Notes: generated from the letters alone by a model not told the origin. Numbered from the stretch's first letter, positions 2,521-50,816 are shown. The stretch is DNA of 64,000 nucleotides from an uncultured Candidatus Saccharibacteria bacterium (GCA_964642835.1 CAZXQA010000001.1:202831-266830), one strand, 5' to 3'. Numbers and translations are program-made.

Positions 2521-3786
2521 ATGTATAGACCAGGGTCAAACAACAGCGGACGCGCTTCGAGCGCTCCTCGCGCCGGCGGTAAGCCGTCCTTCAGGGGCGG
2601 TTTTGGTGCTGGCTCACGCGGTGCTCGTCCAGGTGGTCGTGGTGGTGCTCGCCCGGGTCGCAGCCGCTTTGCGGACAAGTCTTTCTCCGACCTTTCTAAA
2701 TTCGTGAATAAAGTTTCTGTCGTCGAAGAGGCCGAAGTCTTTGTCCCCGAACACACCTTCACTGATTTCCTAATCGCCGAGAAGCTCAAACAAAACATTT
2801 TGACGAAGGGCTACACGCTCCCGACGCCGATTCAGGATAAGGTTATCCCGCACATTCTTCGTCGCGAAGATGTCGTGGGTATCGCGAACACAGGTACCGG
2901 TAAGACCGCCGCCTTCCTCATCCCTCTCATCGACAAGGTGCTTCGGGATGGCAATCAGAACGTGCTTATCATGGTCCCGACGCGCGAGCTCGCGGGTCAG
3001 ATTCGCGACGAATTGTCTGGATTCACGAGTGGTATGAGCATCTGGTCGGTGGTATGCGTCGGCGGCACCTCGATCGTGCCTCAGATCAAGGCTTTGCGAC
3101 ACAAGAATCAGTTCGTGATCGGCACGCCTGGTCGCTTGAAGGACCTTATGGAGCAGGGCTACCTTCGTTTGAACGAGTACGGCACTGTGGTCCTCGACGA
3201 AGCGGACCGCATGCTCGACATGGGCTTCATTAACGACGTGAAGATGATGCTCGGGAAGCTTCCGGCTGACCGTCACACCCTCTTCTTCTCCGCGACGACT
3301 ACGCCCGAGATCACAGGCCTCATTTCCAAATTCTTGAAGCAGCCGGTTACCATTTCCGTTAAAACACGCGATACCTCTGGCTCGATCGACCAGGATGTTG
3401 TTCGCGTCGCTCATCACGAAGATAAGATTGGTAAGCTCGCCGATCTGCTTCGCACCGCCGATTTCTCGAAGGTGCTCGTCTTCGGCAAGACCAAACACGG
3501 CGTCGAGAAGCTCGCTAAGGCTCTCACTACCATGGGTCTGCGTGCCGAATCCATTCACGGGAACAAAAATTTCAATAAACGCCAACAGGCTTTGAGTCAG
3601 TTTAAAGATAACAAGGTGAAGATCCTCGTGGCGACCGACGTCGCCGCGCGCGGTCTCGACATTGCCGACGTCTCTCACGTTATTAACTTCGATTTGCCAG
3701 CTACGTACGAAGACTACATTCACCGCATCGGCCGCACTGGCCGCGGGGGCAAGAAGGGCAACGCTCTCACGTTTGTCCAAGGTTAA
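2521..3786 (+). CDS. DEAD-box ATP-dependent RNA helicase with N-terminal Arg/Gly-rich extension
   Basis: Q-motif, Walker A NTGTGKTAAF, DEAD box VVLDEADRMLDMGF, SAT, HRIGRTGRGG motif VI. Confidence 0.9.
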   Translation: MYRPGSNNSGRASSAPRAGGKPSFRGGFGAGSRGARPGGRGGARPGRSRFADKSFSDLSKFVNKVSVVEEAEVFVPEHTFTDFLIAEKLKQNILTKGYTLPTPIQDKVIPHILRREDVVGIANTGTGKTAAFLIPLIDKVLRDGNQNVLIMVPTRELAGQIRDELSGFTSGMSIWSVVCVGGTSIVPQIKALRHKNQFVIGTPGRLKDLMEQGYLRLNEYGTVVLDEADRMLDMGFINDVKMMLGKLPADRHTLFFSATTTPEITGLISKFLKQPVTISVKTRDTSGSIDQDVVRVAHHEDKIGKLADLLRTADFSKVLVFGKTKHGVEKLAKALTTMGLRAESIHGNKNFNKRQQALSQFKDNKVKILVATDVAARGLDIADVSHVINFDLPATYEDYIHRIGRTGRGGKKGNALTFVQG

Positions 3787-3850
3787 TCCCCTAGGTGAGG
3801 GTGGCTTTATTTTTCTCTGTGAGTAGGGGATAATACGAAGATTCAACTAT

Positions 3851-4738
3851 ATGAATATGAAAAACAACAAGAACGTGTGGGTCATTGCAGGCGCGATTGT
3901 AACGATTCTCGTGATCTGGGCCCTTGTGCATGTCTCGAGAAGCTCCCGCACTCTCCTTGGTTCGGCTACGTACTTCTGTGACGCTGGTAAATCGATCGAA
4001 GCAAAGTTCTATAGTGGCAAGGAAATGGAAGCTCCTCTTCCAGGCGAGATGCCTCAGCCTACAGGTACGCTTGATGTCTCTCTTGATAACGGCCCTGTCA
4101 TGAATCTTCGCCAGACGATTTCCGCAGATGGTGTTCGTTATGCCAATAGCGATGAGTCCTTAGTAGTTTGGAGTAAGGGTACGACCGTACTCGTCATGAG
4201 AAATAACACCATGGATCTTGCGTATACCAACTGCGATGCTGCGCGCCTTGCGAACGCGACTTCCACTCCCGCCCAACCTCTTCCCACGACACCTTTGAAA
4301 CCCGCTCCACCCGCTCCTGCTGAACCAGTAGCTTGCACCATGGAAGCAAGAATTTGTCCTGATGGTAGCTATGTGGGTCGCACGGGCCCGAAGTGCGAAT
4401 TTAGTGCTTGCCCAACTATGGTTGGTCAGGTTGATCTGGGCACACTCTCAGTGGGGCAAACGAGAGTTATTAACGGTGTCTCTATCTCCGTCAATAAAGT
4501 AGTCGAAGACAGTCGCTGCCCATCGAACGTTCAGTGTATCCAGGCCGGACGCGCGCTCGTTTCTGTGACCTTGGCAGCTGGAACAGAGGCGAATACAGTG
4601 AACCTTTCTTCTCAGCCGGTAGTACCATATGTCTTCGGAGGCTCGAAGATTTCCCTCATCGAAGTATTGCCTGAGCGTCATGAGACGACGCTTCCCACGC
4701 AATCAAGTTACCGCCTGACCTTCCGAGTCGAGAAATAA
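3851..4738 (+). CDS. membrane-anchored protein with MliC-like (lysozyme inhibitor) domain, Pro-rich linker and Cys-containing C-terminal domain
   Basis: N-terminal TM helix; CDAGKSIEAKFYSG...SADGVRYANSDESLVVWSKG pattern resembles MliC family; rest unassigned. Confidence 0.5.
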   Translation: MNMKNNKNVWVIAGAIVTILVIWALVHVSRSSRTLLGSATYFCDAGKSIEAKFYSGKEMEAPLPGEMPQPTGTLDVSLDNGPVMNLRQTISADGVRYANSDESLVVWSKGTTVLVMRNNTMDLAYTNCDAARLANATSTPAQPLPTTPLKPAPPAPAEPVACTMEARICPDGSYVGRTGPKCEFSACPTMVGQVDLGTLSVGQTRVINGVSISVNKVVEDSRCPSNVQCIQAGRALVSVTLAAGTEANTVNLSSQPVVPYVFGGSKISLIEVLPERHETTLPTQSSYRLTFRVEK

Positions 4739-37977: not shown

Positions 37978-39577
37978 TCTCCTCACTCGAGACCAGGCGA
38001 CGCGTGAGACATACTCGACCGACGCGAGCCTCTTTAAGGTAGAGCCAGAAGCTGTAGCTTTCCCCAAGGACGCCGAGGAGTTAAAGCAGCTTGTGGCCTA
38101 CGCGAAGAAGCACCAGACCTCTCTTACCATGCGCGCGGCTGGGACCGACATGAGTGGCGGCCCATTGAATACGGGGATCATCGCTGACACGACGCGGTTC
38201 ATGAACAGAATCGGAGAGATTACCCCTGTGGACAAAGGATTATCCTCTGTAACGGTAGAGCCGGGCGTCTTCTACCGGGATCTCGAGAAGAAGACGCGTG
38301 CCCACGGGCTCCTCTTGCCGTGCTACCCGGCGTCCAAGGATCTCGCCGCTCTGGGAGGGATGGTAGGGAACAACTGCGGTGGGGAATTGTCGCTTCGCTA
38401 CGGGAAGATGGAGAACTTCGTCATTGAGTCGAAATATATTTTCTCCGACGGGAACGAATACGTCGTGAAGCCTCTCACGGGGAGCGAACTCGATGCCAAA
38501 ATGGCCGAGAATACCTTCGAAGGTCGCCTCTACGCTTCGCTCGTCTCTCTCATTTGGCATCACAAAGACATTATCAAGGCCGCGAAGCCCAAGGTGGCCA
38601 AGAACTCAGCCGGCTACTTCCTCTGGAACGCCTGGGATGGTCGGACCTTCGATTTAAATAAAATCCTGACCGGCGCCCAAGGCACGCTCGGTCTCATGAC
38701 GGAAGCCACCCTGCGACTCGTGCCCGAGAAAACGCATCACGACCTCATCGCTGTCTTTCTCTCCTCCTGGGATGAGTTGCCGAAGGTAGTGAACGCCATT
38801 CTTCCGCACGAGCCGGAGAGTCTGGAGACCTTTGATAAAGAAACGATCAAACTCGGTCTGCGCTTCTTCCCTGAGATCGCGCGGAAAGCCCATACCAACA
38901 TCTTCTCCTTCCTCTTCAAATTCTTGCCGGAAGCTCTCGTGGGTCTCCGGATGGGTGGTCTTCCAGAAATTATTATCTTAATTGAGATTGCCGAAACTAC
39001 TCCTCAAGAAGTCGATAGTAAACGCGAAGCCCTCCTCAAAACTTTGAAAGAGTTGGACGTGCTCCATCGCGCGATCACGAAAGACAGCGAGGAAGAGAAG
39101 TTCTGGATCGTGCGCCGAGAATCCTTCAACCTCTTGCGTCATCATGCGAGTGGGAAGCGAACAGTGCCGCTTATCGACGACTTCTGCATTCCGCCCGAAC
39201 GTGTGCCGGAAGCCCTGCCGGAGATGAAAGCTCTTCTCGAGAAATTTGATATCCCCGTGAACATTGCCGGTCACGCCGGAGAAGGGAACTTCCACATTAT
39301 TCCGCTCATGGACCTCACGCTCGCGAGTGAACGCGAGAAGCTTCTGCCTGTGGCGCATGCGTTTTATGACCTCGTCGCGAAGTACAAGGGCACGACGACA
39401 GGGGAGCACAACGACGGCATCGTCCGCACCCCCTTCCTTTCCAAAATATATTCCCCGGAGGTGCTCGATCTCTTTACCCAGGTGAAGAATATCTGCGACC
39501 CCGAGAACATCTTTAACCCCGGCAAGAAGATTGGAGGCTCTTTCGCAGACTTCGAGAGATACTTGACAAATAGGTAG
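37967..39577 (+). CDS. FAD-linked oxidase (GlcD/D-lactate dehydrogenase-like, PCMH-type FAD-binding)
   Basis: N-terminal FAD-binding domain (RAAGTDMSGGPL...), C-terminal FAD-oxidase domain. Confidence 0.8.
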   Translation: MDSNLLTRDQATRETYSTDASLFKVEPEAVAFPKDAEELKQLVAYAKKHQTSLTMRAAGTDMSGGPLNTGIIADTTRFMNRIGEITPVDKGLSSVTVEPGVFYRDLEKKTRAHGLLLPCYPASKDLAALGGMVGNNCGGELSLRYGKMENFVIESKYIFSDGNEYVVKPLTGSELDAKMAENTFEGRLYASLVSLIWHHKDIIKAAKPKVAKNSAGYFLWNAWDGRTFDLNKILTGAQGTLGLMTEATLRLVPEKTHHDLIAVFLSSWDELPKVVNAILPHEPESLETFDKETIKLGLRFFPEIARKAHTNIFSFLFKFLPEALVGLRMGGLPEIIILIEIAETTPQEVDSKREALLKTLKELDVLHRAITKDSEEEKFWIVRRESFNLLRHHASGKRTVPLIDDFCIPPERVPEALPEMKALLEKFDIPVNIAGHAGEGNFHIIPLMDLTLASEREKLLPVAHAFYDLVAKYKGTTTGEHNDGIVRTPFLSKIYSPEVLDLFTQVKNICDPENIFNPGKKIGGSFADFERYLTNR

Positions 39578-42404: not shown

Positions 42405-43385
42405 ATGAATCCCGATCTCGAAAAGTATAAGTCGAATCCTCGCACCGCTTATCTCGCGGATTCTTTCGCCCGTCTTCTCAAGGAAGAAGAGGAGTTAAAG
42501 GTTCTCGCCACCGATCCCGAGATGGCCGCTCTCTCGGAAGAAGAGATGAAGAATATCGAAGCGCAAAAGGAAGCACTCATGAAGGAAATTGAGGACATCG
42601 TCGCCGCCGAAGAAAAGGAGGACGAATTCCCGAACGAACTTATTTTAGAAATCCGCGCCGGTGCCGGGGGAGACGAAGCCGCTCTCTTTGCCCACGAGCT
42701 GGCCGAAATGTACAAGGCCTATGCCGCCACTCAGGGTTGGTCCTTCACTCTTCTCGCGAGCTCCGAGAACTCGATCGGCGGCTACAAGGAAGCCTCGTTT
42801 GAAATCCGCGGTCTCAACTGCTACAAGCGTCTCCGCTACGAAACGGGCGTCCAGCGCGTCCAGCGCGTCCCTGAGACCGAGAAGATGGGTCGTGTTCACA
42901 CTTCCACCGTAACAGTGGCTATCCTCCCGGTAAGAAAGAAGCTCAACATCGAGATCCGCCCTCAAGACTTGGAGATCACCACCTTCCGCTCCGGCGGCGC
43001 GGGCGGTCAGAACGTAAACAAGGTGGAAACAGCCGTCCGTATCGTCCACACCCCAACTGGGCTCGAAGTAAAGTGCACTTCAGAAAGAAGCCAGCTCAAG
43101 AACAAGGAGAAGGCCATGAGCATCCTCGCCGCCAAACTCGAGCAGCTTCGAGAGGAGGAGGAAGCGAAGAAAGTGGGTGCCGAGCGTAAAGCACAGGTCG
43201 GAACAGGCGATCGCTCAGAAAAGATCCGCACCTACAACTTCCCTCAGAACCGCATCACCGATCACCGCGTGAAGGTCTCCGTCCACGACATGGAAGGCTT
43301 CATGGCGGGCAATATTGATAAGATTTTGGACGCGCTCGAGAACCCTGAGGCTCACGCTGGTGACGCTGCCGATGACGAAGATTAA
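42405..43385 (+). CDS. prfA: peptide chain release factor 1
   Basis: GGQ motif [13 protein letters not shown]; PET tripeptide (RF1-type PxT). Confidence 0.9.
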
Positions 43386-44028
43386 GAGTGAAGAACCGGA
43401 AGCCTACCGCCTCGGCTGGATTCCTTTTATACACACGCATATTTGGCTCGATTCAAAGCCGCTCATCCCACGACCAGAAACTGAATACTGGGCACATGAA
43501 CTTATCTGCAAGTTCCAAGCTCTAAGCTCTACACCTCTTAAGGTTCTTGATCTTTGCGCCGGCTCGGGAGCGATTGGCGTCGCTCTCGCGCAGGAAATTC
43601 CAACGGCTACAGTCGACTTCGTGGAACTCGATGAGAAGCATCACGAAACGATCCGGAAAAATATCAAAGAAAACGGTATTGAAGAGAACCGAATAAGGAT
43701 TTTTGGAGGAGATTTGTTCGAACAGGTGCAAGATTCCTACGATGTAATCTTCTCAAACCCACCCTACATCGATATGAACTTGGGTAGGGTAGAGGACTCT
43801 GTGCTCGACCATGAGCCTCACCTCGCTCTCGATGGCGGTATGCATGGCACGGCCATCATCGCGCGCATTCTGGCTGCCGCACCATCGCATCTCAAACCTC
43901 GCGGCGCTCTTTGGTTGGAACACGAGCCTGAACAGGTTGAGTGGCTTTCGATACAGGCAGGCTATACGGCTTCTTACCCCGATCAATACGGTGTCTTGCG
44001 CTACTCCATCTTTGCCGCTTTTCCCTAA
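43372..44028 (+). CDS. prmC: release factor glutamine methyltransferase PrmC/HemK (short form)
   Basis: SAM motif [14 protein letters not shown] motif; start overlaps prfA 3' end. Confidence 0.75.
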
Positions 44029-44048
44029 ATCACCCCCTCCCTCTCCCG

Positions 44049-44082
44049 TATCCCCAGTTTTTGCAAAGGTCTAACCTCTGCA
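44049..44082 (+). repeat. intergenic repeat copy 1: TATCCCCAGTTTTTG + degenerate palindrome TGCAAAGGTCTAACCTCTGCA
   Basis: 15/15 identity to 50711-50725; palindrome related to 50358-50378 and 50737-50757. Confidence 0.55.
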
Positions 44083-44090
44083 TGATGTGC

Positions 44091-44119
44091 TTGACAATAT
44101 ATTGTATATATGATAAGTT
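44091..44119 (+). promoter_or_regulatory. sigma70-like promoter with no ORF downstream
   Basis: TTGACA (44091-44096), 17-nt spacer, extended -10 TGATAAGTT. Confidence 0.4.
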
Positions 44120-44125
44120 AAGAGC

Positions 44126-44505
44126 AGATAGGGTACGGCCTGGTTTAAGGGGAGGGGAAATTCCCAGGGGAAGGCAATTACATCACAGACCTCACATAAA
44201 GGCCTCACACGACCGGAACAACGGGAGAGCACGCGCATTTAAGCGACCTGCATACTACCCAACCGGCACGAGGCCACTGCTCAGAAGAGCAAGAGGCAGT
44301 GATTGCGCCAGCCACTGTTCGGACAAATCACCTTTCCACCCAGACCGTACCCCATAGCGCATCCAACAGGGCTGCATGCAGCCCGAACAGGAGAGTTATG
44401 GCGAAGAAGACCGAAGACCGAGTTGCGGCGTAGATCCGCAACCGGCTGGGGGTGGCACGAAGCCACCCCGTCGATAGGGCCGCCCAACACACCGGGCGGC
44501 CCTTT
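44126..44505 (+). ncRNA. candidate long structured noncoding RNA of unknown class between prmC and rpsB
   Basis: about 390 nt with no ORF over 60 aa in sensible context, many local hairpins (e.g. GGGGTGG-CACGAAG-CCACCCC), ends in GGGCCGCCC-AACACACC-GGGCGGCCC hairpin plus TTTT. Confidence 0.3.
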
Positions 44506-44648
44506 TCCTTGTCTAAACAGGACTTTCCTGCTATAGTTCTCTAGCTTTTAAGGCTTCGGTCGGCCTTTATCAATAACCAAAAGCACAAGGTCCCTGACCC
44601 GGATCTGTCCGCCTCGTGAGAGAGGCGCGATAGCAAAACCACTCACAC

Positions 44649-45374
44649 ATGAAAAAAGATTCTAAAGGTGTCATTGATTCGTTGTTTGCCGCTGGCGCGC
44701 ACTTCGGCTTCGTCAAAAGCCGCCGTCACCCGTCTGCCAAGCCGTTCATTTTCGGTGCTAAGAACAAGGTAGAAATCTTCGACCTTGAGAAGACCTCCGT
44801 GGAACTCGCGAAGGCTCTTGAGTTTGTCGAAGGTAAGGGCAAGGAAGGCGGTCTCATTCTCTTTGTTGGCGGTAAGTCTGAAGCTCGCGAGGCGGTCGTA
44901 AAGGCCGGCACCGAGCTCTCCATGCCGTACGTCGCCGGTCGCTGGATCGGAGGCACCCTCACCAACTTCCCAGAGATTAAGAAGCGCATTGCCAAACTTG
45001 AAGAACTTACCACTCAGCGCGAAAAGGGTGAACTCGGTAAGTACACCAAGAAGGAACGCCTCCTCATCGACCGCGAGATCGACAACCTCACCACATACTT
45101 CGGCGGTCTTTCGACTTTGAAGATGCTCCCGAAGATCCTCGTCATCATTGACCCTAAGAAGGAGCACATCGCTGTTTCCGAAGCTCGTCGCATGAAGATC
45201 CCGGTTGTTGCCCTCTGCGGTTCTGACACCGACCTCCACCAGATTGACCGCGCCATCCCAGGCAACGACTCCTCTCGCCAGACTATTTCCTACGTCTTGA
45301 GTGAAGTAGTCTCCGCCTTCAAAGCTGGCCAAGCTCTCGCTACCGAGGCTGCCACCACTCCGGCCGCTCAGTAA
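44649..45374 (+). CDS. rpsB: 30S ribosomal protein S2
   Basis: canonical S2 sequence (HFGF..., ILFVGGK...). Confidence 0.95.
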   Translation: MKKDSKGVIDSLFAAGAHFGFVKSRRHPSAKPFIFGAKNKVEIFDLEKTSVELAKALEFVEGKGKEGGLILFVGGKSEAREAVVKAGTELSMPYVAGRWIGGTLTNFPEIKKRIAKLEELTTQREKGELGKYTKKERLLIDREIDNLTTYFGGLSTLKMLPKILVIIDPKKEHIAVSEARRMKIPVVALCGSDTDLHQIDRAIPGNDSSRQTISYVLSEVVSAFKAGQALATEAATTPAAQ

Positions 45375-45464
45375 CCTCTCGCTCTCGTTTCTTTTCTCAG
45401 TTTGTTTTTCTGGGAAGTAATGTAAAATTGATAACTGAATAATCAACCTTAATTCATCCGTACC

Positions 45465-45917
45465 ATGATCAGCACCGACCAAATTAAAGAGCTCCGTGAC
45501 GCTACCGGCCTCTCTCTGCAGCAGATCCGCGTCGCCCTCGAAGAAGCAGGGGGAGATAAGGAGAAGGCGCTCGCCATCCTTAAAGAGAAGAGTGGGGAAA
45601 TTGCTGCGAAGAAAAGTGATCGCACCTTGGGCTCAGGTTACATTGGCTCCTACGTTCATTCCAACGGCACAGTAGGCGCCATGGTGGAACTCCTCTGCGA
45701 GACCGACTTCGTAGCCAAGAATCCTGAATTCCAAGCCGCCGCCAAGGACATGGCCATGCACATCGCCGCCATGAACCCTCTCGACCAGGGCGAACTCCTC
45801 GAGCAAGCCTTCATCAAGGGCTCCGGTGGAACGATTGGGGAAATGGTCAACGGCCTCATCCAGAAGTTCGGTGAGCGCACGGAGATCGGTAAGTTCACTC
45901 GCTTCTCACTTAATTAA
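45465..45917 (+). CDS. tsf: elongation factor Ts (short form)
   Basis: N-terminal UBA-like IKELRDATG...; LLCETDFVAKN core motif. Confidence 0.85.
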   Translation: MISTDQIKELRDATGLSLQQIRVALEEAGGDKEKALAILKEKSGEIAAKKSDRTLGSGYIGSYVHSNGTVGAMVELLCETDFVAKNPEFQAAAKDMAMHIAAMNPLDQGELLEQAFIKGSGGTIGEMVNGLIQKFGERTEIGKFTRFSLN

Positions 45918-46610
45918 ATGCCAACGCTTATCATCTTCATTCTCTCCGGGGTTGCTCTCATGAGCCTCACTCTGGCCAAGAGAGTGGAAATGAAGAGCAA
46001 GCGGCCCTCCTTCCTCTTGAAGCTTGTTTCTAAGGGCGACGAACACGCTCGCGTAGCGTATCACGAGGCGCTTCACTTCTACTCTGAAGGCAAACACCGG
46101 GCCGCCTTCTTCGTGAAGAAGCAACTCCCACTTAAGGCCAAGAGCTACGTGAATAAGGGTGTCTCGTACGTAAAGGCGAAAGGCGAGGAGCGTTTCGGCA
46201 ATATGCGGAACTCTCGCCTTATCAAGCGCGATGGCGGGATCAGTGAATTCTTCAAAACTATTTCCGAAATGGAAAAGGGTGCTGGAGAAATAAACGAATC
46301 TCTCCACGCCACACCCGTGGTCGAAGTGGCGGCTCCAGAAGTAATGGGGGCGAAAGAAGGAGCAGTGGTAGAAACAATCACACCTCTCGAGTCTCCGAAA
46401 GCCAAGAAATCTCGCGCTCCTCGCAAGAAGAAAGTGGAAGTGGTCTTCACCGAAGACGTCACGGAAGTAGTGCCCGAGGTCACTATTGTCCCGGAACCTG
46501 AGGCTACCCCTGTACTCCCCGTTATCGAGGCCGTGCCCACGCAGCCTCACAACTTTAAACCAATCCAGCCCCGCAAGCGTCGCTTGAAAGTAGTAGAGTT
46601 GGGAGAGTAG
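45918..46610 (+). CDS. hypothetical membrane-anchored protein (occupies the position usually held by pyrH/frr)
   Basis: N-terminal TM; Lys-rich; Pro/Glu/Val-rich C-terminus. Confidence 0.45.
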   Translation: MPTLIIFILSGVALMSLTLAKRVEMKSKRPSFLLKLVSKGDEHARVAYHEALHFYSEGKHRAAFFVKKQLPLKAKSYVNKGVSYVKAKGEERFGNMRNSRLIKRDGGISEFFKTISEMEKGAGEINESLHATPVVEVAAPEVMGAKEGAVVETITPLESPKAKKSRAPRKKKVEVVFTEDVTEVVPEVTIVPEPEATPVLPVIEAVPTQPHNFKPIQPRKRRLKVVELGE

Positions 46611-46628
46611 AATCCAGTGCGCGTATAC

Positions 46629-46701
46629 GCCGCCTTAGCTCAGTTGGTAGAGCAACGCTTTTGTAAAGCGAAGGTCCCCAGTTCGAATCTGGGAGGCGGC
46701 T
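46629..46701 (+). tRNA. tRNA-Thr (anticodon TGT), CCA not encoded
   Basis: acceptor GCCGCCT/AGGCGGC, D-arm GCTC-AGTTGGTA-GAGC, anticodon loop TTTGTAA, T-arm CCCAG-TTCGAAT-CTGGG; one A-A mismatch at top of anticodon stem. Confidence 0.8.
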
Positions 46702-46726
46702 CTCGTTTGTTTAAAGGTATCGAAGA

Positions 46727-47407
46727 TTATCTTACCTGCACTGTACTCGTCGCGGCTTTCTGCATCTTCAATGTTTTAAGTGCTGGGATCTGAGCTTCAA
46801 GCTCCTCAATAGAGTGGAAACCATAATACGGTGTTCCATTCACAATAATTGCCGGCACCTGAGAATTAACCTTGTAGATCGAGATAAGAGTCTGAACGGC
46901 ACCGAGGTCGTAGTTGTAGTCGAAGGAATAGACGCGGAGATCAGGATACGTATCGCGAAGAGTGGTGAGTACATAACCCATCTTCTCGCAATCCTCGCAT
47001 TTGTCGCGAGTCGAGTAGAAGTAGAGGATGAAGGTCGGCTTAATGTTGCACTTCTCGGTCAAGCGCTTCATGAGAAGGTAATCCTTGATCTCGAGGAGAA
47101 AGTAGGAGCGCTTGAGACTCTCAACGTCTTGGCTATCAAACCCGCCCTGGTTCTCGGCGTAAGAGAGCTTCTCACCCAAAGGACCGAGTTCCTTCGAGAG
47201 GAAACCGGGCCCAATATCCTTGCAGGAAGTCTCAGCGAGGAGAGCGAACTGCGTTTCTGAGGAAAGGATGTCGAGCGACACGCGGTTCTCGATATCGCGG
47301 ACGTTCTCGACCTTCTTGTCGGTGAGCTTTGTGCTCACAAAGATTGCCGTACCGAAGATAAGAGCGGTGATGAGGAACGCGTAGATATATTTCTTCGAAT
47401 CGATCAT
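46727..47407 (-). CDS. membrane-anchored thioredoxin-fold protein with CxxC (CEDC) motif
   Basis: N-terminal TM; CEDCEKMG redox-like motif; co-directional and 22 nt downstream of GT2 gene. Confidence 0.5.
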   Translation of the reverse strand: MIDSKKYIYAFLITALIFGTAIFVSTKLTDKKVENVRDIENRVSLDILSSETQFALLAETSCKDIGPGFLSKELGPLGEKLSYAENQGGFDSQDVESLKRSYFLLEIKDYLLMKRLTEKCNIKPTFILYFYSTRDKCEDCEKMGYVLTTLRDTYPDLRVYSFDYNYDLGAVQTLISIYKVNSQVPAIIVNGTPYYGFHSIEELEAQIPALKTLKMQKAATSTVQVR

Positions 47408-47428
47408 GTGAATAGAAAAAGGATTAAG

Positions 47429-48685
47429 TTAGCGCCAGGTGACCTTCGTCCTGAATATAGTATTCCAGATGGCCTTCGTCAACCAGAGAGGCACGATGAA
47501 GGCGTAGAAAGCGAGGTAGTAGAAGAAACCGCGATCAAGCTTCACTTTCCCATCCGCGAGACGGATAGCGAGGAACAAAATGATGAAGAGAATAAGCGTC
47601 GTACCAATCATCAGGAAAGGAAGGACGCCAGTGTTTAAGAAGTACCAGTCAAAGGAAGGCCAAGCGAAATGCCAATTCAACCCTACTGTGGAAACGCGTT
47701 CAACCCATTTCCAAAGATCGGCCGCTTTACCGAAAATCATGTTACCAATCGTAATCGGAGTAAAGAAGATTGAGAAAATGGAGAGGGGAATAATGAACAT
47801 GCCAATATTGCCGTACTTGCGATTAAAGAGCATCTCGCGATAATCGAAAACGTTGTTCAAGAAGCCGTAGGTCCAGCGGACACGTTGCTTGAGAAGCGTT
47901 TTAATCGTGGCTGGCGTCACGGTGTACACATGAGCGCTGTGAGAGTTCACGAACTTGTAACCGTTCTTCTGGAGACGCATGGCCATCTCCATGTCTTCGG
48001 TGAGATGCGCGTTCTTGTAGCCACCAAGCTCGTGGTATACGGAAGTACGGAAGGTTGAGAACGGCCCGGGTGTCACATACAAAGCGCCCATCGAGGAGAG
48101 CATGCGGCGGAGGAAAACGCCCCAGCGGTACTCGTTCTTCTGCATGCTCTGAAGCATATTCGTCGGCTCGAAAACCTTAATGGAAGGCACAACGGCCTTA
48201 ATTTCCGGATCATCGAAGTAAGGCACGATATTACGAAGAGTCTCGGGTGTAACGAAGGAGTCGGCATCAAGGCAGGCCACGAGATCGGTCGTTGTCATAT
48301 CGATACCAAGATTTACGGCCGTATGTTTGCCACCATTTACCTTGCTCACCACACGCACATTCGAAAGATGTTCGAAGCTTTTGAGCACGGCGAGGGTGTT
48401 ATCGGTTGAGCCGTCATCCACCAAGATGAAAGAGATTTTGTCCTGCGGATAATCGAGGGCGAGCACGGAGTGGATCGTGGCGGCGACCGTCTTCTCTTCG
48501 TTGAAGCAGGGAATGATGACCGTCATGGTCGGGAAGTGCTTCGGTCCACGCGCAAGCATTTCATTCTCGCGCTTAATGTCTCCGCGCACTTCAAGATAGG
48601 TAATAAGGAGGAACACCTCGAAGAACAAGGTGGTAAAAATCGAGACGTAGAGAATGGCTGAATAGAGGTCGGTCATATAAGCCAA
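47429..48685 (-). CDS. processive family-2 glycosyltransferase (PgaC/IcaA/NodC/HAS-like beta-glycan synthase)
   Basis: DDGSTD (D,D,D motifs), QRVRW (QxxRW) motif, N- and C-terminal TM helices. Confidence 0.85.
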   Translation of the reverse strand: MAYMTDLYSAILYVSIFTTLFFEVFLLITYLEVRGDIKRENEMLARGPKHFPTMTVIIPCFNEEKTVAATIHSVLALDYPQDKISFILVDDGSTDNTLAVLKSFEHLSNVRVVSKVNGGKHTAVNLGIDMTTTDLVACLDADSFVTPETLRNIVPYFDDPEIKAVVPSIKVFEPTNMLQSMQKNEYRWGVFLRRMLSSMGALYVTPGPFSTFRTSVYHELGGYKNAHLTEDMEMAMRLQKNGYKFVNSHSAHVYTVTPATIKTLLKQRVRWTYGFLNNVFDYREMLFNRKYGNIGMFIIPLSIFSIFFTPITIGNMIFGKAADLWKWVERVSTVGLNWHFAWPSFDWYFLNTGVLPFLMIGTTLILFIILFLAIRLADGKVKLDRGFFYYLAFYAFIVPLWLTKAIWNTIFRTKVTWR

Positions 48686-48727
48686 AAGCTCATAGATTAT
48701 AGACGTTTTATGTTATAATTTCAACCC

Positions 48728-49885
48728 ATGAAGATCACGATCGAAACCCCAGAAGAAAGTGCCTTGAGAGCTAATTTGGCTCTCCGCACCGACGCGGAAG
48801 CCGAACGCATCAAGCGCTACCTCGCCATGCCCGACCTCTCCCGCACGCCAGGGAGTCCCCTCTATGACATTACCGAGCGCGTGAAGGCGGCTCCGTCGTT
48901 CGCAGGCTTCGACCTCATCGAAATTCCCGAAATTGTCCCGACCTCCATTCTCTTCGACCTCTTCGACTTCCCAGCCGATCACCCCGCGCGCTCGAAGTCA
49001 GACACGTATTATGTAGATGAACAGAATGTTTTGCGTACTCACGACACCGTCTTCTGGTACTACTATCTCCAGAACCCAGAGGTGAAAGCTCGCATCGCCA
49101 AAGGAGAAGCCATGGGCGCGCTCTGCCACGGCAAAGTCTACCGCAAAGACGAGATCGATTCTCGTCACATGAACATCTTTCATCAGTTTGGCGGTTGGTT
49201 CATCGCGCCGAAAGGGCAGGTGAACGTCGAAGATTTGAAAACAGCTTTAGGTGAGGTCGTGAAGACTGTCTTCGGGCCTGAGCAGATCTTCCGCATCAAT
49301 ACCGACACCTTCCCATACACTGATCCCTCCTTCGAAGTTGAGGTCAACGTGAAGGGGACTGCCGCCGAAGGCCCAGCGAAGGGTGAGTGGCTCGAAATTT
49401 TAGGCTCCGGCATGCCGAAAGCCTCTGTGCTACAGAAGATGGGGGTTGAAGGGTACGAGGGCTGGGCCTTCGGTTTCGGGATCGAGCGCCTCGCTATTAT
49501 TTCCATGCAGCTTCCGGACATTCGCCTCCTCTGGTCCACCGACGAGCGCGTGAAGGGCCAACTCAAACTGGGCACGGTCTATAAAGAAGTTTCCAAATTC
49601 CCTCCGGTTATCCGCGACATCTCCTTCATCGTGCCAAAATCCTTCATCCTAAACGACTACTTCGACCTCGTCCGTGATATCGGCGGCGACATGGTAGAAG
49701 ACGTTAAGATGACCGACAAATATGAAAATGATGAGAAATTCGGTGCCGACAAGATGTCCTACACCTTCCGCATTACCTATCGTCACCTCGAGCGTACACT
49801 CACCAACGATGAGGTAAATATTGTCCACGCCAAACTCGAAGACAAGACGGAAAGTGAGTTCAGTGCCCAGGTTCGCCGAGTATAG
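48728..49885 (+). CDS. monomeric phenylalanyl-tRNA synthetase-like protein: PheS-type class II catalytic core fused to a C-terminal FDX-ACB anticodon-binding domain (mitochondrial-type architecture)
   Basis: motif 1 DHPARSKSDTYY, motif 2 YRKDEIDSRHMNIFHQFGG, motif 3 GWAFGFGIERLAII; C-terminal FPPVIRDISFIV...YTFRITYRHLERTLTNDEVN resembles the FDX-ACB domain normally at the PheT C-terminus; no pheT nearby. Confidence 0.8.
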   Translation: MKITIETPEESALRANLALRTDAEAERIKRYLAMPDLSRTPGSPLYDITERVKAAPSFAGFDLIEIPEIVPTSILFDLFDFPADHPARSKSDTYYVDEQNVLRTHDTVFWYYYLQNPEVKARIAKGEAMGALCHGKVYRKDEIDSRHMNIFHQFGGWFIAPKGQVNVEDLKTALGEVVKTVFGPEQIFRINTDTFPYTDPSFEVEVNVKGTAAEGPAKGEWLEILGSGMPKASVLQKMGVEGYEGWAFGFGIERLAIISMQLPDIRLLWSTDERVKGQLKLGTVYKEVSKFPPVIRDISFIVPKSFILNDYFDLVRDIGGDMVEDVKMTDKYENDEKFGADKMSYTFRITYRHLERTLTNDEVNIVHAKLEDKTESEFSAQVRRV

Positions 49886-50106
49886 ACATCCATCAAAATA
49901 CCTTGTAATCTACTGACCAGGCGTTCCACTAACCATATTCGGGGGTCAGAGTGCGCACTACGAATTGGGATAGGTTAATCACGTCGGACCCACGGGATTC
50001 CGTTGCAGCCCGGGTTACCAGAGCTTCACCTCGCTGGTGTGCTCCACCGCAGGAAGTAAGGCCGAAGGTGCAGATCGAACCGACGGCAGCGACCCTGCCG
50101 ACCGAC

Positions 50107-50298
50107 ATGTCCAACTTTACGGGTAAAAGAATTGGTTCAATCGTGATCACAGGGTTCTGGAAGAAAGGGCGCCCGGCACGCAACAGTGTCTGGAAAGGCC
50201 TTTGCGACTGCGGCAAAACGGTCTACCGTCGACACCATTGGGTGAAAAATCCTCGGGACGACAACTACGACCGGTGCGACGCCTGCGCTCATCGGTAG
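50107..50298 (+). CDS. hypothetical small Cys-cluster (zinc-ribbon-like) protein
   Basis: CDCG...CDAC motif; preceded by about 180 nt GC-rich structured leader; followed by strong terminator; longer GTG-initiated version 49951..50298 also possible. Confidence 0.35.
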   Translation: MSNFTGKRIGSIVITGFWKKGRPARNSVWKGLCDCGKTVYRRHHWVKNPRDDNYDRCDACAHR

Positions 50299-50311
50299 AA
50301 CAACGAAACCA

Positions 50312-50342
50312 AGCCGCCTAGTTCACGCTAGGCGGCTTTTTT
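50312..50342 (+). terminator. rho-independent terminator
   Basis: GCCGCCTAG-TTCACG-CTAGGCGGC then TTTTTT. Confidence 0.7.
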
Positions 50343-50378
50343 ATCCCCATCTCCTCCTGCAAAGGATAATCCTTTGCA
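50341..50378 (+). repeat. intergenic repeat copy 2: TTATCCCCA + perfect palindrome TGCAAAGGATAATCCTTTGCA
   Basis: palindrome identical to 50737-50757; TTATCCCCA is 8/9 DnaA-box consensus. Confidence 0.55.
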
Positions 50379-50428
50379 ACTTGAAGCCATCTTTTGGTAT
50401 CGTGAGGAAGGACGCATCGAGGAGACCC

Positions 50429-50671
50429 ATGGCTACATACATCAGTGAACGGCCCGTCAAAACCGAGCGTTCCGATCGAGTCATCAGGATGTTCCAAAAC
50501 ACCTTCCCAATCGGCAAGATTGAGGTGGTGCAACCTGCTCACAACCCGCCAGAAGTCTCTCAAGCGAAATCGGCTTACTTTGCCATCGAGATTCCAATCT
50601 TAGAAGAAGAGAGGCTCGCTGTCTGGCTCAACCGACTCAACGGTCGCCAGATGAAGAAGCAGAAGAAATAA
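50429..50671 (+). CDS. hypothetical small protein flanked by the palindromic repeats
   Basis: ATG with GGAGA RBS; followed by strong terminator; no family motif (ORF track gives TTG-start version 50381..50671). Confidence 0.35.
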   Translation: MATYISERPVKTERSDRVIRMFQNTFPIGKIEVVQPAHNPPEVSQAKSAYFAIEIPILEEERLAVWLNRLNGRQMKKQKK

Positions 50672-50674
50672 ACC

Positions 50675-50707
50675 CCGCCGCCCGGAACATCGGGCGGCTG
50701 TTTTTAT
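50675..50707 (+). terminator. rho-independent terminator
   Basis: CCGCCCG-GAACAT-CGGGCGG then CTGTTTTTAT. Confidence 0.7.
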
Positions 50708-50709
50708 AC

Positions 50710-50757
50710 TTATCCCCAGTTTTTGATCTATTTTATGCAAAGGATAATCCTTTGCAT
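50710..50757 (+). repeat. intergenic repeat copy 3: TTATCCCCAGTTTTTG + 10 nt + palindrome TGCAAAGGATAATCCTTTGCA, immediately upstream of gyrB promoter
   Basis: shares 15-mer with copy 1 and 21-mer palindrome with copy 2; TATAAT at 50795-50800 follows. Confidence 0.55.
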
Positions 50758-50816
50758 GGGGGCAAAATACGGCTTTCTTGTAGAGCTAAAATCTGCTATA
50801 ATACGGGGTACCAAAC

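Follow-up and report, generated by a model that had tools for sequence, protein, structure and literature searches.

The closest described systems are the REPtrons of Enterobacteria and Pseudomonas, in which REP/BIME palindromes are associated with the transposase TnpA-REP (Nunvar 2010; Bertels & Rainey 2011; Ton-Hoang 2012; structure 4ER8). REPs of this type are over-represented outside genes, with tens to hundreds of copies that often form inverted doublets (REPINs). Here, a syntenic single-copy gene for a HUH/Y1 enzyme with a Y-x3-NP motif is flanked by inverted palindromes, and solo palindromes of a type specific to the transposase lineage are found between genes, often after terminators. 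In the TIRYT/TIRtron systems, RAYT-like genes are combined with longer, partly self-complementary inverted repeats, which sometimes lie over the gene ends (Di Nocera et al. 2013, PMC3733652); they correspond to TnpAY1 subclass 2.1 and RAYT group 1 (Quentin 2018; Bertels 2017). Some RAYT subclasses bear an HTH domain that resembles DnaA-C (Quentin et al. 2018, PMC6006769), and the TIR consensus, as published, was stated to be unlike DnaA boxes (Di Nocera et al. 2013, PMC3733652).

The stretch of DNA analysed here (the window, 64 kb) contains three composite elements, each composed of a 9-mer foot or A-module (TTATCCCCA), a spacer of 5-17 nt and a 21-bp palindrome. These are probably solo, non-canonical repeats of the REP/TIR type, cognate to a RAYT-type (REP-associated tyrosine) Y1 transposase, and not an operator of gyrB. 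The elements and the signals next to them are as follows.

44048-44082, + strand: copy 1, with A-module GTATCCCCA (44048-44056), a 5-nt spacer and the variant-II palindrome TGCAAAGGTCTAACCTCTGCA (44062-44082)
50311-50343, + strand: intrinsic terminator of a 115-aa Zn-ribbon-like ORF, stem at 50311-50338; copy 2 abuts it
50341-50378, + strand: copy 2, with A-module TTATCCCCA (50341-50349), an 8-nt spacer and the perfect variant-I palindrome TGCAAAGGATAATCCTTTGCA (50358-50378)
50677-50708, + strand: intrinsic terminator of an 80-aa ORF, kept in the relatives L037 and L038; copy 3 begins 11 nt past its stem
50710-50785, + strand: copy 3, with TTATCCCCA (50710-50718), a 17-nt spacer and the variant-I palindrome (50736-50756); the block given is the whole segment missing in L038
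50794-50802, + strand: extended -10 of gyrB (TGcTATAAT), outside the element and conserved in L037 and L038 whether the element is present or not

A sequence-only reading of the window had reported three copies at these places, and this was borne out, as were the exact 15-mer shared by copies 1 and 3 (TATCCCCAGTTTTTG, at 44049 and 50711) and the exact 21-bp palindrome shared by copies 2 and 3. The latter 21-mer, TGCAAAGGATAATCCTTTGCA, occurs twice in the window against 0.01 expected even at three mismatches, and the half-site TGCAAAGG is confined to the three elements within the 64 kb. No extra copies of variant I or variant II were found in the window, and all three copies fall inside 6.7 kb. 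Copy 1, with the A-module (G)TATCCCCA at 44048-44056, had been taken for a degenerate AAAGGATAATCCTTT palindrome; instead, it matches a second perfect palindrome, TGCAGAGGTCTAACCTCTGCA (variant II), at 20 of 21 positions and, A-module included, is 35/36 identical to an element at 1912-1946 of L037, a different locus. It has a single arm mismatch and a weak hairpin, with a single-stranded DNA fold of -4.5 kcal/mol (z -1.3); the corresponding value for copy 2 is -8.5 kcal/mol (z -4.1). Copy 3 had been placed correctly but described as too short, since the CCCC of its A-module is able to pair with GGGG just 3' of the palindrome and the L038-absent block runs on to 50785. Its fold of -11.6 kcal/mol includes this outer CCCC:GGGG stem, and the 3' part consists of a partial inverted A-module TGGGGGCAA (50757-50765) and a tail to ...CTTTCTTGTAGAG (50785), which is the DNA immediately upstream of the gyrB extended -10. 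Across copies, the spacing between foot and hairpin ranges from 0 to 17 nt, and the central base or loop occurs in both orientations relative to the foot, which a symmetric double-stranded site fits equally well as a hairpin.

The start of copy 2 falls in the T-run of the terminator before it, and the 80-aa ORF (ATG 50430) follows downstream. The other two copies had been described as sitting directly upstream of promoters; copy 1 is indeed followed after 9 nt by a TTGACA box and copy 3 after about 40 nt by the extended -10 of gyrB, but neither promoter passed a consensus promoter scan.

When 596 Gb of genomes were scanned with the palindrome core, the matches were mostly singletons, consistent with chance; the source genome of the window was not among them. 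The exception was a single Zambryskibacteriota MAG with five exact cores, among them two at a transposase gene and one inverted doublet. Beyond these, a metagenome scan turned up the exact 21-mer only twice, both times without recognisable surroundings. In the MAG locus (L006), TTATCCCCA-N7-TGCAAAGGATAATCCTTTGCA stands immediately upstream of a 237-aa ORF, and the 3' end of this ORF carries TGCAAAGGATAATCCTTTGCA-T-GGGGATAA, forming an inverted pair with the upstream copy. Ten further loci of the gene family were read, with proteins 51-81% identical to that of L006 (some are the same protein on different contigs), and matching palindromes were present both upstream and at the stop codon in eight of them (L033-L036, L046, L047, L039 and L041). 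The identical 9-mer and 21-mer bracket the transposase gene in inverted orientation in related genomes, which supports the earlier suggestion of a small repetitive extragenic palindrome family.

Palindrome and transposase co-vary. Six loci at 67-81% identity to the L006 protein share the variant-I core, of which a third copy lies within the gene; the palindrome of L039 (60%), CAGAGGTTTAACCTCTG, is near variant II, and that of L041 (51%), with 23-nt arms, is unrelated; only weak palindrome versions were seen in L043/L044 (56%), and L040, L042 and L045 stood outside the flank comparison. Compensatory changes maintain the palindromy: 6 of 12 palindrome pairs vary on both sides, and paired cells amounted to 91%, against 82% when shuffled and 36-46% when slid. 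At the RAYT loci, the upstream palindrome extends over the -35 region of the transposase gene's promoter, beside TATAAT.

The encoded protein belongs to the Y1 HUH enzymes; it carries the HUH and Y-x3-NP motifs and matches Y1_Tnp, the IS200 family model. Its modelled fold was nearer to TnpA-REP (4ER8) than to the TnpA of IS608 or ISDra2 in a fold search, and the best NCBIfam model was NF047646 REP_Tyr_transpos, at 37.9 bits and thus below the 80-bit curated cutoff. The gene neighbours (PG_binding_1 / RAYT / PKD / beta-helix-LCAT) were the same at the seven homologous loci long enough for flanks, the proteins of syntenic loci being 51-69% identical, and in L006 the conserved neighbours lie on the downstream side of the gene. 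Such a conserved position is a hallmark of RAYTs, unlike IS elements. None of the loci read contained a second copy of the orthologous transposase family; another Y1 gene, in L006, is 26% identical and has different flanks (GGGGTCAGACCCC), which fit the motif GGGGWSAS exactly. The family is a RAYT-type one (HUH/Y1), single-copy as far as the loci read show, and widespread in Paceibacteria/Zambryskibacteria, which are related ultra-small bacteria of the candidate phyla radiation (CPR). A tblastn search of the 64-kb window found no RAYT homolog, and a cognate RAYT in this organism itself is assumed.

Among close relatives, the gyrB-side copies are present, absent or swapped. In L037 (GyrB 97% identical), variant-II elements occupy the same two junctions, and the palindrome upstream of gyrB is perfect but differs from variant I of the window at 5 of 21 positions; the 9-mer foot is kept while the palindrome switches between variants I and II. 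The syntenic L038 (GyrB 92%) has a clean 76-bp gap opposite window positions 50710-50785 and no element at any junction in 22 kb, which could reflect a deletion and not an ancestral empty site. Conservation of the gyrB-upstream element, as checked in these relatives, was therefore not found, although the gyrB -10 and leader are conserved where the element is absent (L038) or swapped (L037). Dispersed copies number three in the window, two in L037, two in L003 and one in L030. In the MAG, an inverted palindrome doublet lies in frame in topA, at a surface loop of TopA, whereas the closest topA orthologs (91% and 86% identity) are without the doublet's 17-18 residues; the same palindrome was also found in frame within tsaD of that genome. 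The near-identity of copy 1 to an L037 element at a different locus, together with the absence of the topA doublet from the closest orthologs, led to the conclusion that the repeats disperse.

If the enzyme works like TnpA-REP of E. coli and TnpA of IS608, it would recognise the hairpin where the DNA is single-stranded, as at replication forks, and cutting and rejoining near the 9-nt foot may allow copies to spread or be replaced. Preferred landing places would be just past terminators and where small gene cassettes meet. An effect on gyrB or the adjacent transcription units, if there is one, would be a by-product, which for copy 3 may be the provision of DNA upstream of the gyrB -10. Several observations speak against this reading: the copy number is low (three in 64 kb, five exact cores in the MAG), the GT[AG]G foot of REPs is missing and no GTAG/GTGG abuts any copy, and two variants occur in one genome, yet related genomes have one gene of the orthologous family at the conserved locus. 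The 0-17 nt range of spacings is also odd, being unexpected under a fixed enzyme-DNA geometry.

Unlikely is the view that the host maintains the copies as hairpins that function in RNA or DNA (terminator boosters, stabilisers of mRNA 3' ends, cassette insulators or supercoiling-sensitive cruciforms upstream of gyrB), with a merely historical link to the transposase. Three of the five dispersed copies in the window and L037 begin right after an intrinsic terminator, the hairpins are stable (-8.5 to -12 kcal/mol, z -4 to -6), and two lineages have retained a perfect palindrome upstream of gyrB even though its sequence has turned over; in E. coli, mRNA stabilisation and gyrase binding by REPs are known (background in PMC6006769). 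However, L038 is without such hairpins at every junction, that of copy 1 is mismatched and weak, none has a T-run of its own, and the conserved 9-mer foot and the in-frame intragenic copies are left unexplained.

The foot differs from the DnaA box TTATCCACA by one mismatch, as noted earlier, and this resemblance holds, with perfect TTATCCACA boxes close to the palindrome in relatives: downstream of the 3' palindrome in L033 and L034, between two upstream palindromes in L034 as an additional box, and about 80 nt upstream of the upstream palindrome in L036, past a terminator-like hairpin. In L039, a single box is found 132 nt downstream of the 3' palindrome, in + orientation and not inverted. 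The 9-mer might hence be a working DnaA box that serves titration, transcriptional control by DnaA or opening of the adjacent palindrome, with or without the transposase; its retention across the change between variants I and II and the DnaA-C-like HTH of some RAYT subclasses mentioned above are in favour. We consider this quite improbable from the sequences at hand. Each element has one one-mismatch box, and there is neither a box cluster nor an AT-rich unwinding element; the four consensus boxes in the 64 kb are scattered and at chance level, and a lone one-mismatch 9-mer is weak evidence, with 15 hits against 8.6 expected. Furthermore, a Pfam scan of 56 members of the transposase family (E<=10) and fold searches gave no DnaA_C or HTH domain, and in more distant orthologs the 9-mer has drifted to TTATCCAAA, TTATCCATA or TTGTCCACA, or is absent. 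Compared with DnaA boxes proper (consensus TTWTNCACA), the foot is thus one mismatch off in the window, with perfect boxes in three relatives and a distant one in a fourth, whereas the boxes of the elements are single, unclustered and without origin context.

The sequence-only reading had also offered, among three options, an operator for a dimeric regulator of gyrB and neighbouring genes; in that view, a dimeric transcription factor would bind the palindrome and control gyrB, the small ORF and the non-coding unit together. A perfect 10+1+10 palindrome is typical of dimer sites, two copies lie within 10-45 nt of promoter elements, a palindrome that is likewise perfect stands at the corresponding site before gyrB in L037, and the palindrome over the -35 region at the RAYT loci implies that binding there could regulate the transposase gene. 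Nevertheless, such an operator is very doubtful and was not supported, because conservation at a fixed position relative to the promoter fails: with the -10 and leader of gyrB conserved, the site is missing in L038 and replaced in L037 by a palindrome differing at 5/21 positions, and the palindrome centre lies at unequal distances from the nearest promoter elements from copy to copy. In-frame copies of the sequence lie within topA, tsaD and the transposase gene as well, and it travels with a 9-mer foot that would be superfluous for a simple operator.

That the repeats are ends, or MITE-like derivatives, of an insertion sequence of the autonomous IS200/IS605 type, in place of a domesticated RAYT, is highly improbable. 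The protein does match Y1_Tnp, and copy 3, with its two feet, resembles a unit that has collapsed (TTATCCCCA ... palindrome ... TGGGGGCAA); these points are opposed by one syntenic orthologous gene per locus, whose chromosomal position is the same for proteins of 51-100% identity, by the absence of a second orthologous copy in the loci read (the only other Y1 gene, in L006, being the distant one with different flanks), by a fold nearer to TnpA-REP, by the Y-x3-NP motif, a class 2 (RAYT) signature, and by the same palindrome standing inverted at both ends, the left and right subterminal hairpins of IS200/IS605 elements being different.

Against the known systems, the putatively RAYT-serviced repeats can be compared as follows. 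With IS200/IS605 elements (IS608, ISDra2) and their hairpin-bearing miniature derivatives, the family shares the HUH/Y1 catalytic core and, presumably, single-strand hairpin recognition, but it shows no multiple gene copies in the loci read, keeps a conserved position and has the same inverted palindrome at both ends. The in-frame inverted doublet in the TopA surface loop of the related genome recalls Rickettsia palindromic elements and intragenic REPs; however, it is found in the related MAG and not in the window, and its units, at about 21 bp each, are much shorter than RPEs. The TIRtrons are similar in their self-complementary inverted repeats, sometimes over gene ends, and in dispersed families that are only moderately abundant, and their motif GGGGWSAS resembles the foot TGGGGATAA, though the fit is only partial; unlike them, the foot here is a DnaA-box-like 9-mer, and no C-terminal HTH (Bac_DnaA_C / HTH_23 / HTH_28-like), as in subclass 2.1, was found in the family. 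Differences from the REPtrons are the 9-nt foot TTATCC(C/A)CA at a variable 0-17 nt in place of GT[AG]G, a very low copy number (three solo copies in 64 kb, five cores in one MAG), the placement of the palindromes (one over the gene promoter, one over the stop codon, and a conserved third one within the coding region), the NCBIfam RAYT score of 37.9 against a cutoff of 80 bits, and the host, which has a streamlined Patescibacteria genome. Shared with them are the syntenic single-copy HUH/Y1 gene with Y-x3-NP and inverted palindrome flanks, the solo intergenic copies, often after terminators, the specificity of the palindrome type for the transposase lineage and a modelled fold closest to 4ER8. 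The elements, known here from sequence, are most likely a further member of the known REP-RAYT-like kind.

The sequence-only reading described three copies of a short repeat in the window, and reading the sequence bore out their number and places. In each, a foot of the type TTATCC(C/A)CA precedes a 21-bp palindrome, with variant I of the palindrome in copies 2 and 3 and variant II in copy 1, both variants thus being present in one genome.

Repeat copies in the window
44048-44082, copy 1: GTATCCCCA-GTTTT-TGCAAAGGTCTAACCTCTGCA
50341-50378, copy 2: TTATCCCCA-TCTCCTCC-TGCAAAGGATAATCCTTTGCA
50710-50765, copy 3: TTATCCCCA-GTTTTTGATCTATTTTA-TGCAAAGGATAATCCTTTGCA-TGGGGGCAA

The 21-mer stands far above chance, as 0.01 matches are expected in the window with up to three mismatches permitted, and within the 64 kb the 8-nt half-site TGCAAAGG occurs only inside the three copies. 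No fourth copy emerged when the window was searched for both palindrome variants and for hairpins preceded by any 9-mer, and the remaining perfect palindromes are terminators, each of them unique; the repeat count is low (3 in the 64-kb window). Foot and hairpin are separated by anything between 0 and 17 nt, the palindrome loop is seen in both orientations and the elements lack the canonical GTAG foot. Folded as single-stranded DNA, the perfect copies reach values between -8.5 and -12 kcal/mol (z between -4 and -6). Pairing of the foot's CCCC with GGGG beyond the palindrome is possible in copy 3 and in both copies of the relative L037, a 'double-foot' form resembling a transposase locus that has collapsed into a single palindrome. 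At 38231-38251 (+), a FAD-oxidase-like ORF contains in frame (DKGLSSV) the sequence GACAAAGGATTATCCTCTGTA, which matches the palindrome at 16 of 21 positions; it could be an old intragenic copy and was not counted as one, since by our own calculation chance alone would give about 0.16 matches of this kind.

When one genome per species (596 Gb) was scanned for GCAAAGGATNATCCTTTGC, 30 loci matched, mostly singletons from unrelated phyla and approximately the number that chance would give for 18 specified bases; the exception was a single Zambryskibacteriota MAG (isolate S40-15, JANLIM01), which had five matches. Only two matches to the 21-mer were found in metagenomes, and these were rejected as uninformative, one having a coding-like context and the other that of a Clostridia-type terminator. 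At one locus of S40-15 (L006), two perfect 21-mers bracket an ORF of 237 amino acids (313-1026). On its left side, TTATCCCCA-N7-palindrome is followed immediately by TATAAT; on its right side, the palindrome is followed by T-GGGGATAA, the 9-mer in inverted form; and a third copy, TACAAAGGATTATCCTTTGTA, is internal to the gene. The ORF matches Pfam Y1_Tnp (E 3e-8); among NCBIfam models it is matched best by that of the REP-associated tyrosine transposase (RAYT), with a score under the model cutoff. The protein has 6,695 homologs at E <= 1e-5, many from Patescibacteria; 56 of these were aligned, and none departs from the HUH histidines, the catalytic tyrosine or the class-2 signature Y-x3-NP. 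No homolog of the transposase is encoded in the window, where tblastn gave only a trivial match across copy 3. A second Y1 transposase gene (L006 6276-6893) is located 5 kb from the first, with 26% identity to it; the palindrome at its flanks, GGGGTCAGACCCC, is another one and conforms to the published TIRYT motif GGGGWSAS. The small S40-15 genome therefore carries two separate transposase/repeat systems.

Ten further loci of the gene family were read (L033-L036, L039-L041, L043, L046 and L047; 51-81% identity to the L006 protein), some of which are the same protein on different contigs; the flanks read exclude L040, L042 and L045. Eight of the ten have matching palindromes both beside the -10 element and across the stop codon or the 3' end. 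Where identity is 67-81% (six loci), the core CAAAGGAT(A/T)ATCCTTTG recurs at three places, ahead of the gene, some 150 nt inside it and at its 3' end. L039 (60% identity) has AGCACAGAGGTTTAACCTCTGTGCT as its palindrome, L041 (51%) an unrelated one with 23-nt arms, and L043/L044 (56%) weak versions only. Across 24 palindromes from 11 loci and the window, 91% of positions were paired, against 82% when shuffled and 36-46% when slid, in sequences that had been preselected for at least nine pairs, and six of 12 pairs within the palindrome had changed on both sides. In the seven loci long enough for flanking genes, the transposase gene lies between PG_binding_1 and PKD plus beta-helix/LCAT proteins, and the latter pair is likewise downstream of the gene in L006. 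A comparison of L039 (3001-3660) with L033 (10001-10669) showed that the L039 gene is inverted relative to PG_binding_1, PKD and LCAT, an orientation differing from that of six other loci, as if the segment between the inverted flanking palindromes had been flipped. What sets RAYTs apart from insertion sequences is that the gene is single and syntenic and that the palindromes flanking it are specific to the lineage (PMC5581495, PMC6006769). The REP family, one of the options offered from the sequence alone, is supported, since the window repeats are sequence-identical to repeats flanking a RAYT-type gene in related genomes and the palindrome co-varies with that gene.

Within S40-15, the palindrome was also found inside genes. 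In topA (L003 1211-1256, minus strand), an inverted doublet of the variant-I palindrome encodes DIAKDNPLQTGKGLSF in frame; this insert is located in a loop, and exactly this segment is missing in the closest orthologs (91% and 85-86% identity). More distant TopA orthologs carry different inserts of 8-15 aa in the same loop (e.g. VRPLEDSQGRTLS), which suggests that palindromes may have been inserted recurrently at one site. In tsaD (L030 4617-4637), a 20/21 match lies in frame (LAKDNPLR) between the HMEGH and SGGHT motifs. Di Nocera et al. (2013, PMC3733652) reported REPs inside genes for replication and repair.

The genes neighbouring the copies comprise, in a first part, prfA, prmC, a non-coding unit of about 400 nt, rpsB, a short tsf, tRNA-Thr and a glycosyltransferase gene and, in a second part, a single-chain pheS-like gene, two small ORFs with their own terminators, gyrB and rsmH. 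The best named relatives of GyrB are from Candidatus Zambryskibacteria (85% identity), which assigns the window to a Patescibacteria (CPR) genome. The non-coding unit after copy 1 (44091-44505, +) has a TTGACA box at 44091 and is closed by a strong terminator (44476-44503) directly ahead of the rpsB promoter; Rfam gave nothing for it at gathering or E<=1, and there were no tRNA/tmRNA calls. It contains a short ORF (ATG 44399), MAKKTEDRVAA*, whose ending is reminiscent of tmRNA tags. The pheS-like gene (48728-49885, +) encodes a single chain of 385 aa with a class II core and a C-terminal FDX-ACB anticodon-binding domain; this layout, conserved in the relatives L037 and L038, is that of the mitochondrial-type monomeric PheRS and not of the bacterial alpha subunit.

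Comparison of the gyrB region with these two syntenic relatives (L037, GyrB 97%; L038, GyrB 92%) revealed copy turnover between close relatives. L037 has elements at the same two junctions as the window, just 5' of the counterpart of the 80-aa ORF, which comes straight after pheS in that genome, and ahead of the gyrB promoter. They share the TTATCCCCA foot, but their perfect palindrome is TGCAGAGGTCTAACCTCTGCA, with its reverse complement at the second site; of its five differences from variant I, four make up two compensatory pairs. Copy 1 carries this second variant and, from TATCCCCA to CATG, is 35/36 identical to the L037 element at a different locus, which suggests that a unit of some 36 bp has been dispersed. 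In L038, no element was found across 22 kb, and the terminator is followed immediately by ...TTTTTATAC joined to CCCTTTTCTGCTATAAT, window 50710-50785 being cleanly missing.

Between pheS and gyrB, the three genomes differ in which small ORF cassettes they carry and in what order. Fast-evolving cassettes of this kind have a hot spot in the spacer (window 49951-50671; L037 2000-2663; L038 9303-9923), every one having its own terminator and none a Pfam domain; the order of the Zn-ribbon-like and 80-aa ORFs is reversed between the window and L037, and in L038 a membrane ORF takes the place of the Zn-ribbon-like one. The prfA-rpsB region carrying copy 1 is also variable, only the last ~170 nt before rpsB being conserved, and in L038 it is without prmC, element and non-coding unit. 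In the window, prmC (the release-factor methyltransferase gene) follows prfA at 43315-44028, and L038 has an unrelated ORF of 133 aa instead (3303-3960).

An operator controlling gyrB and its neighbours had also been proposed. This proposal was not supported: the element is missing in L038 and has another palindrome in L037, and the extended -10 and leader of gyrB are conserved in L038 although the block is missing, the promoter being unchanged. Local effects on gyrB are probably incidental, the copy 3 block supplying the DNA upstream of the extended -10, and a tempting but wrong annotation, 'gyrB operator', is removed. Copies 2 and 3 as the ends of a decayed transposase locus were rejected, as the intervening ORF has no similarity to the transposase and its homolog in L038 is without repeats; the small ORFs were likewise rejected as cognate DNA-binding proteins, having no Pfam domains and, for the 80-aa homolog of L038, no upstream palindrome.

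The foot is one mismatch from the DnaA box, and its likeness to that box is stronger than the sequence-only reading knew: a perfect TTATCCACA is present near a flanking palindrome in L033, L034 and L036, and 132 nt downstream of the 3' palindrome, in non-inverted orientation, in L039. It was considered whether the foot might be a genuine DnaA box recruited into the RAYT/REP system, such that host DnaA on TTATCC(C/A)CA would open the adjoining AT-rich spacer and the palindrome would be extruded as a single-stranded hairpin, a substrate for the HUH transposase away from replication forks. In minimal genomes, REP processing would then be directly coupled, at the level of mechanism, to binding of the replication initiator, with DnaA-titrating sites and supercoiling-sensitive cruciforms scattered beside topology genes (upstream of gyrB in the window, inside topA in the relative). 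Some RAYT subclasses carry a DnaA-like DNA-binding domain (Quentin et al. 2018, PMC6006769). Such a domain was unsupported in this transposase family by Pfam scans of 56 members at E<=10 and by fold searches, the window has no DnaA-box cluster, and we regard the recruitment of a true DnaA box as very improbable.

For the REP/RAYT reading, a mechanism can be proposed by analogy with TnpA-REP and IS608, in which the enzyme would bind the palindrome as a hairpin on single-stranded DNA, make use of the conserved foot on its 5' side in a manner comparable to the GTAG used by E. coli TnpA-REP, and cut and rejoin, whereby copies would spread, be replaced or be lost. The foot of nine bases and the 21-bp hairpin, with two natural variants and compensatory changes, offer short defined substrates for the study of non-GTAG RAYT recognition. 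More generally, a large Y1-transposase family in ultra-small genomes, with a fixed chromosomal position and lineage-specific flanking palindromes, whose repeats turn over at small-gene-cassette junctions beside gyrB, is a concrete and testable case of repeat DNA persisting in streamlined genomes.

REP/RAYT systems are known chiefly from Proteobacteria, along with a few other phyla, and our literature search found no paper tying them to Patescibacteria. The elements share the defining RAYT architecture, and we file them as a putative non-canonical REP/RAYT member in Patescibacteria. They behave like REPs but depart from REP/RAYT systems in the GTAG criterion and in a transposase below the NCBIfam cutoff, and they are like the 'TIRtron' class in their longer composite flanks and few dispersed copies.
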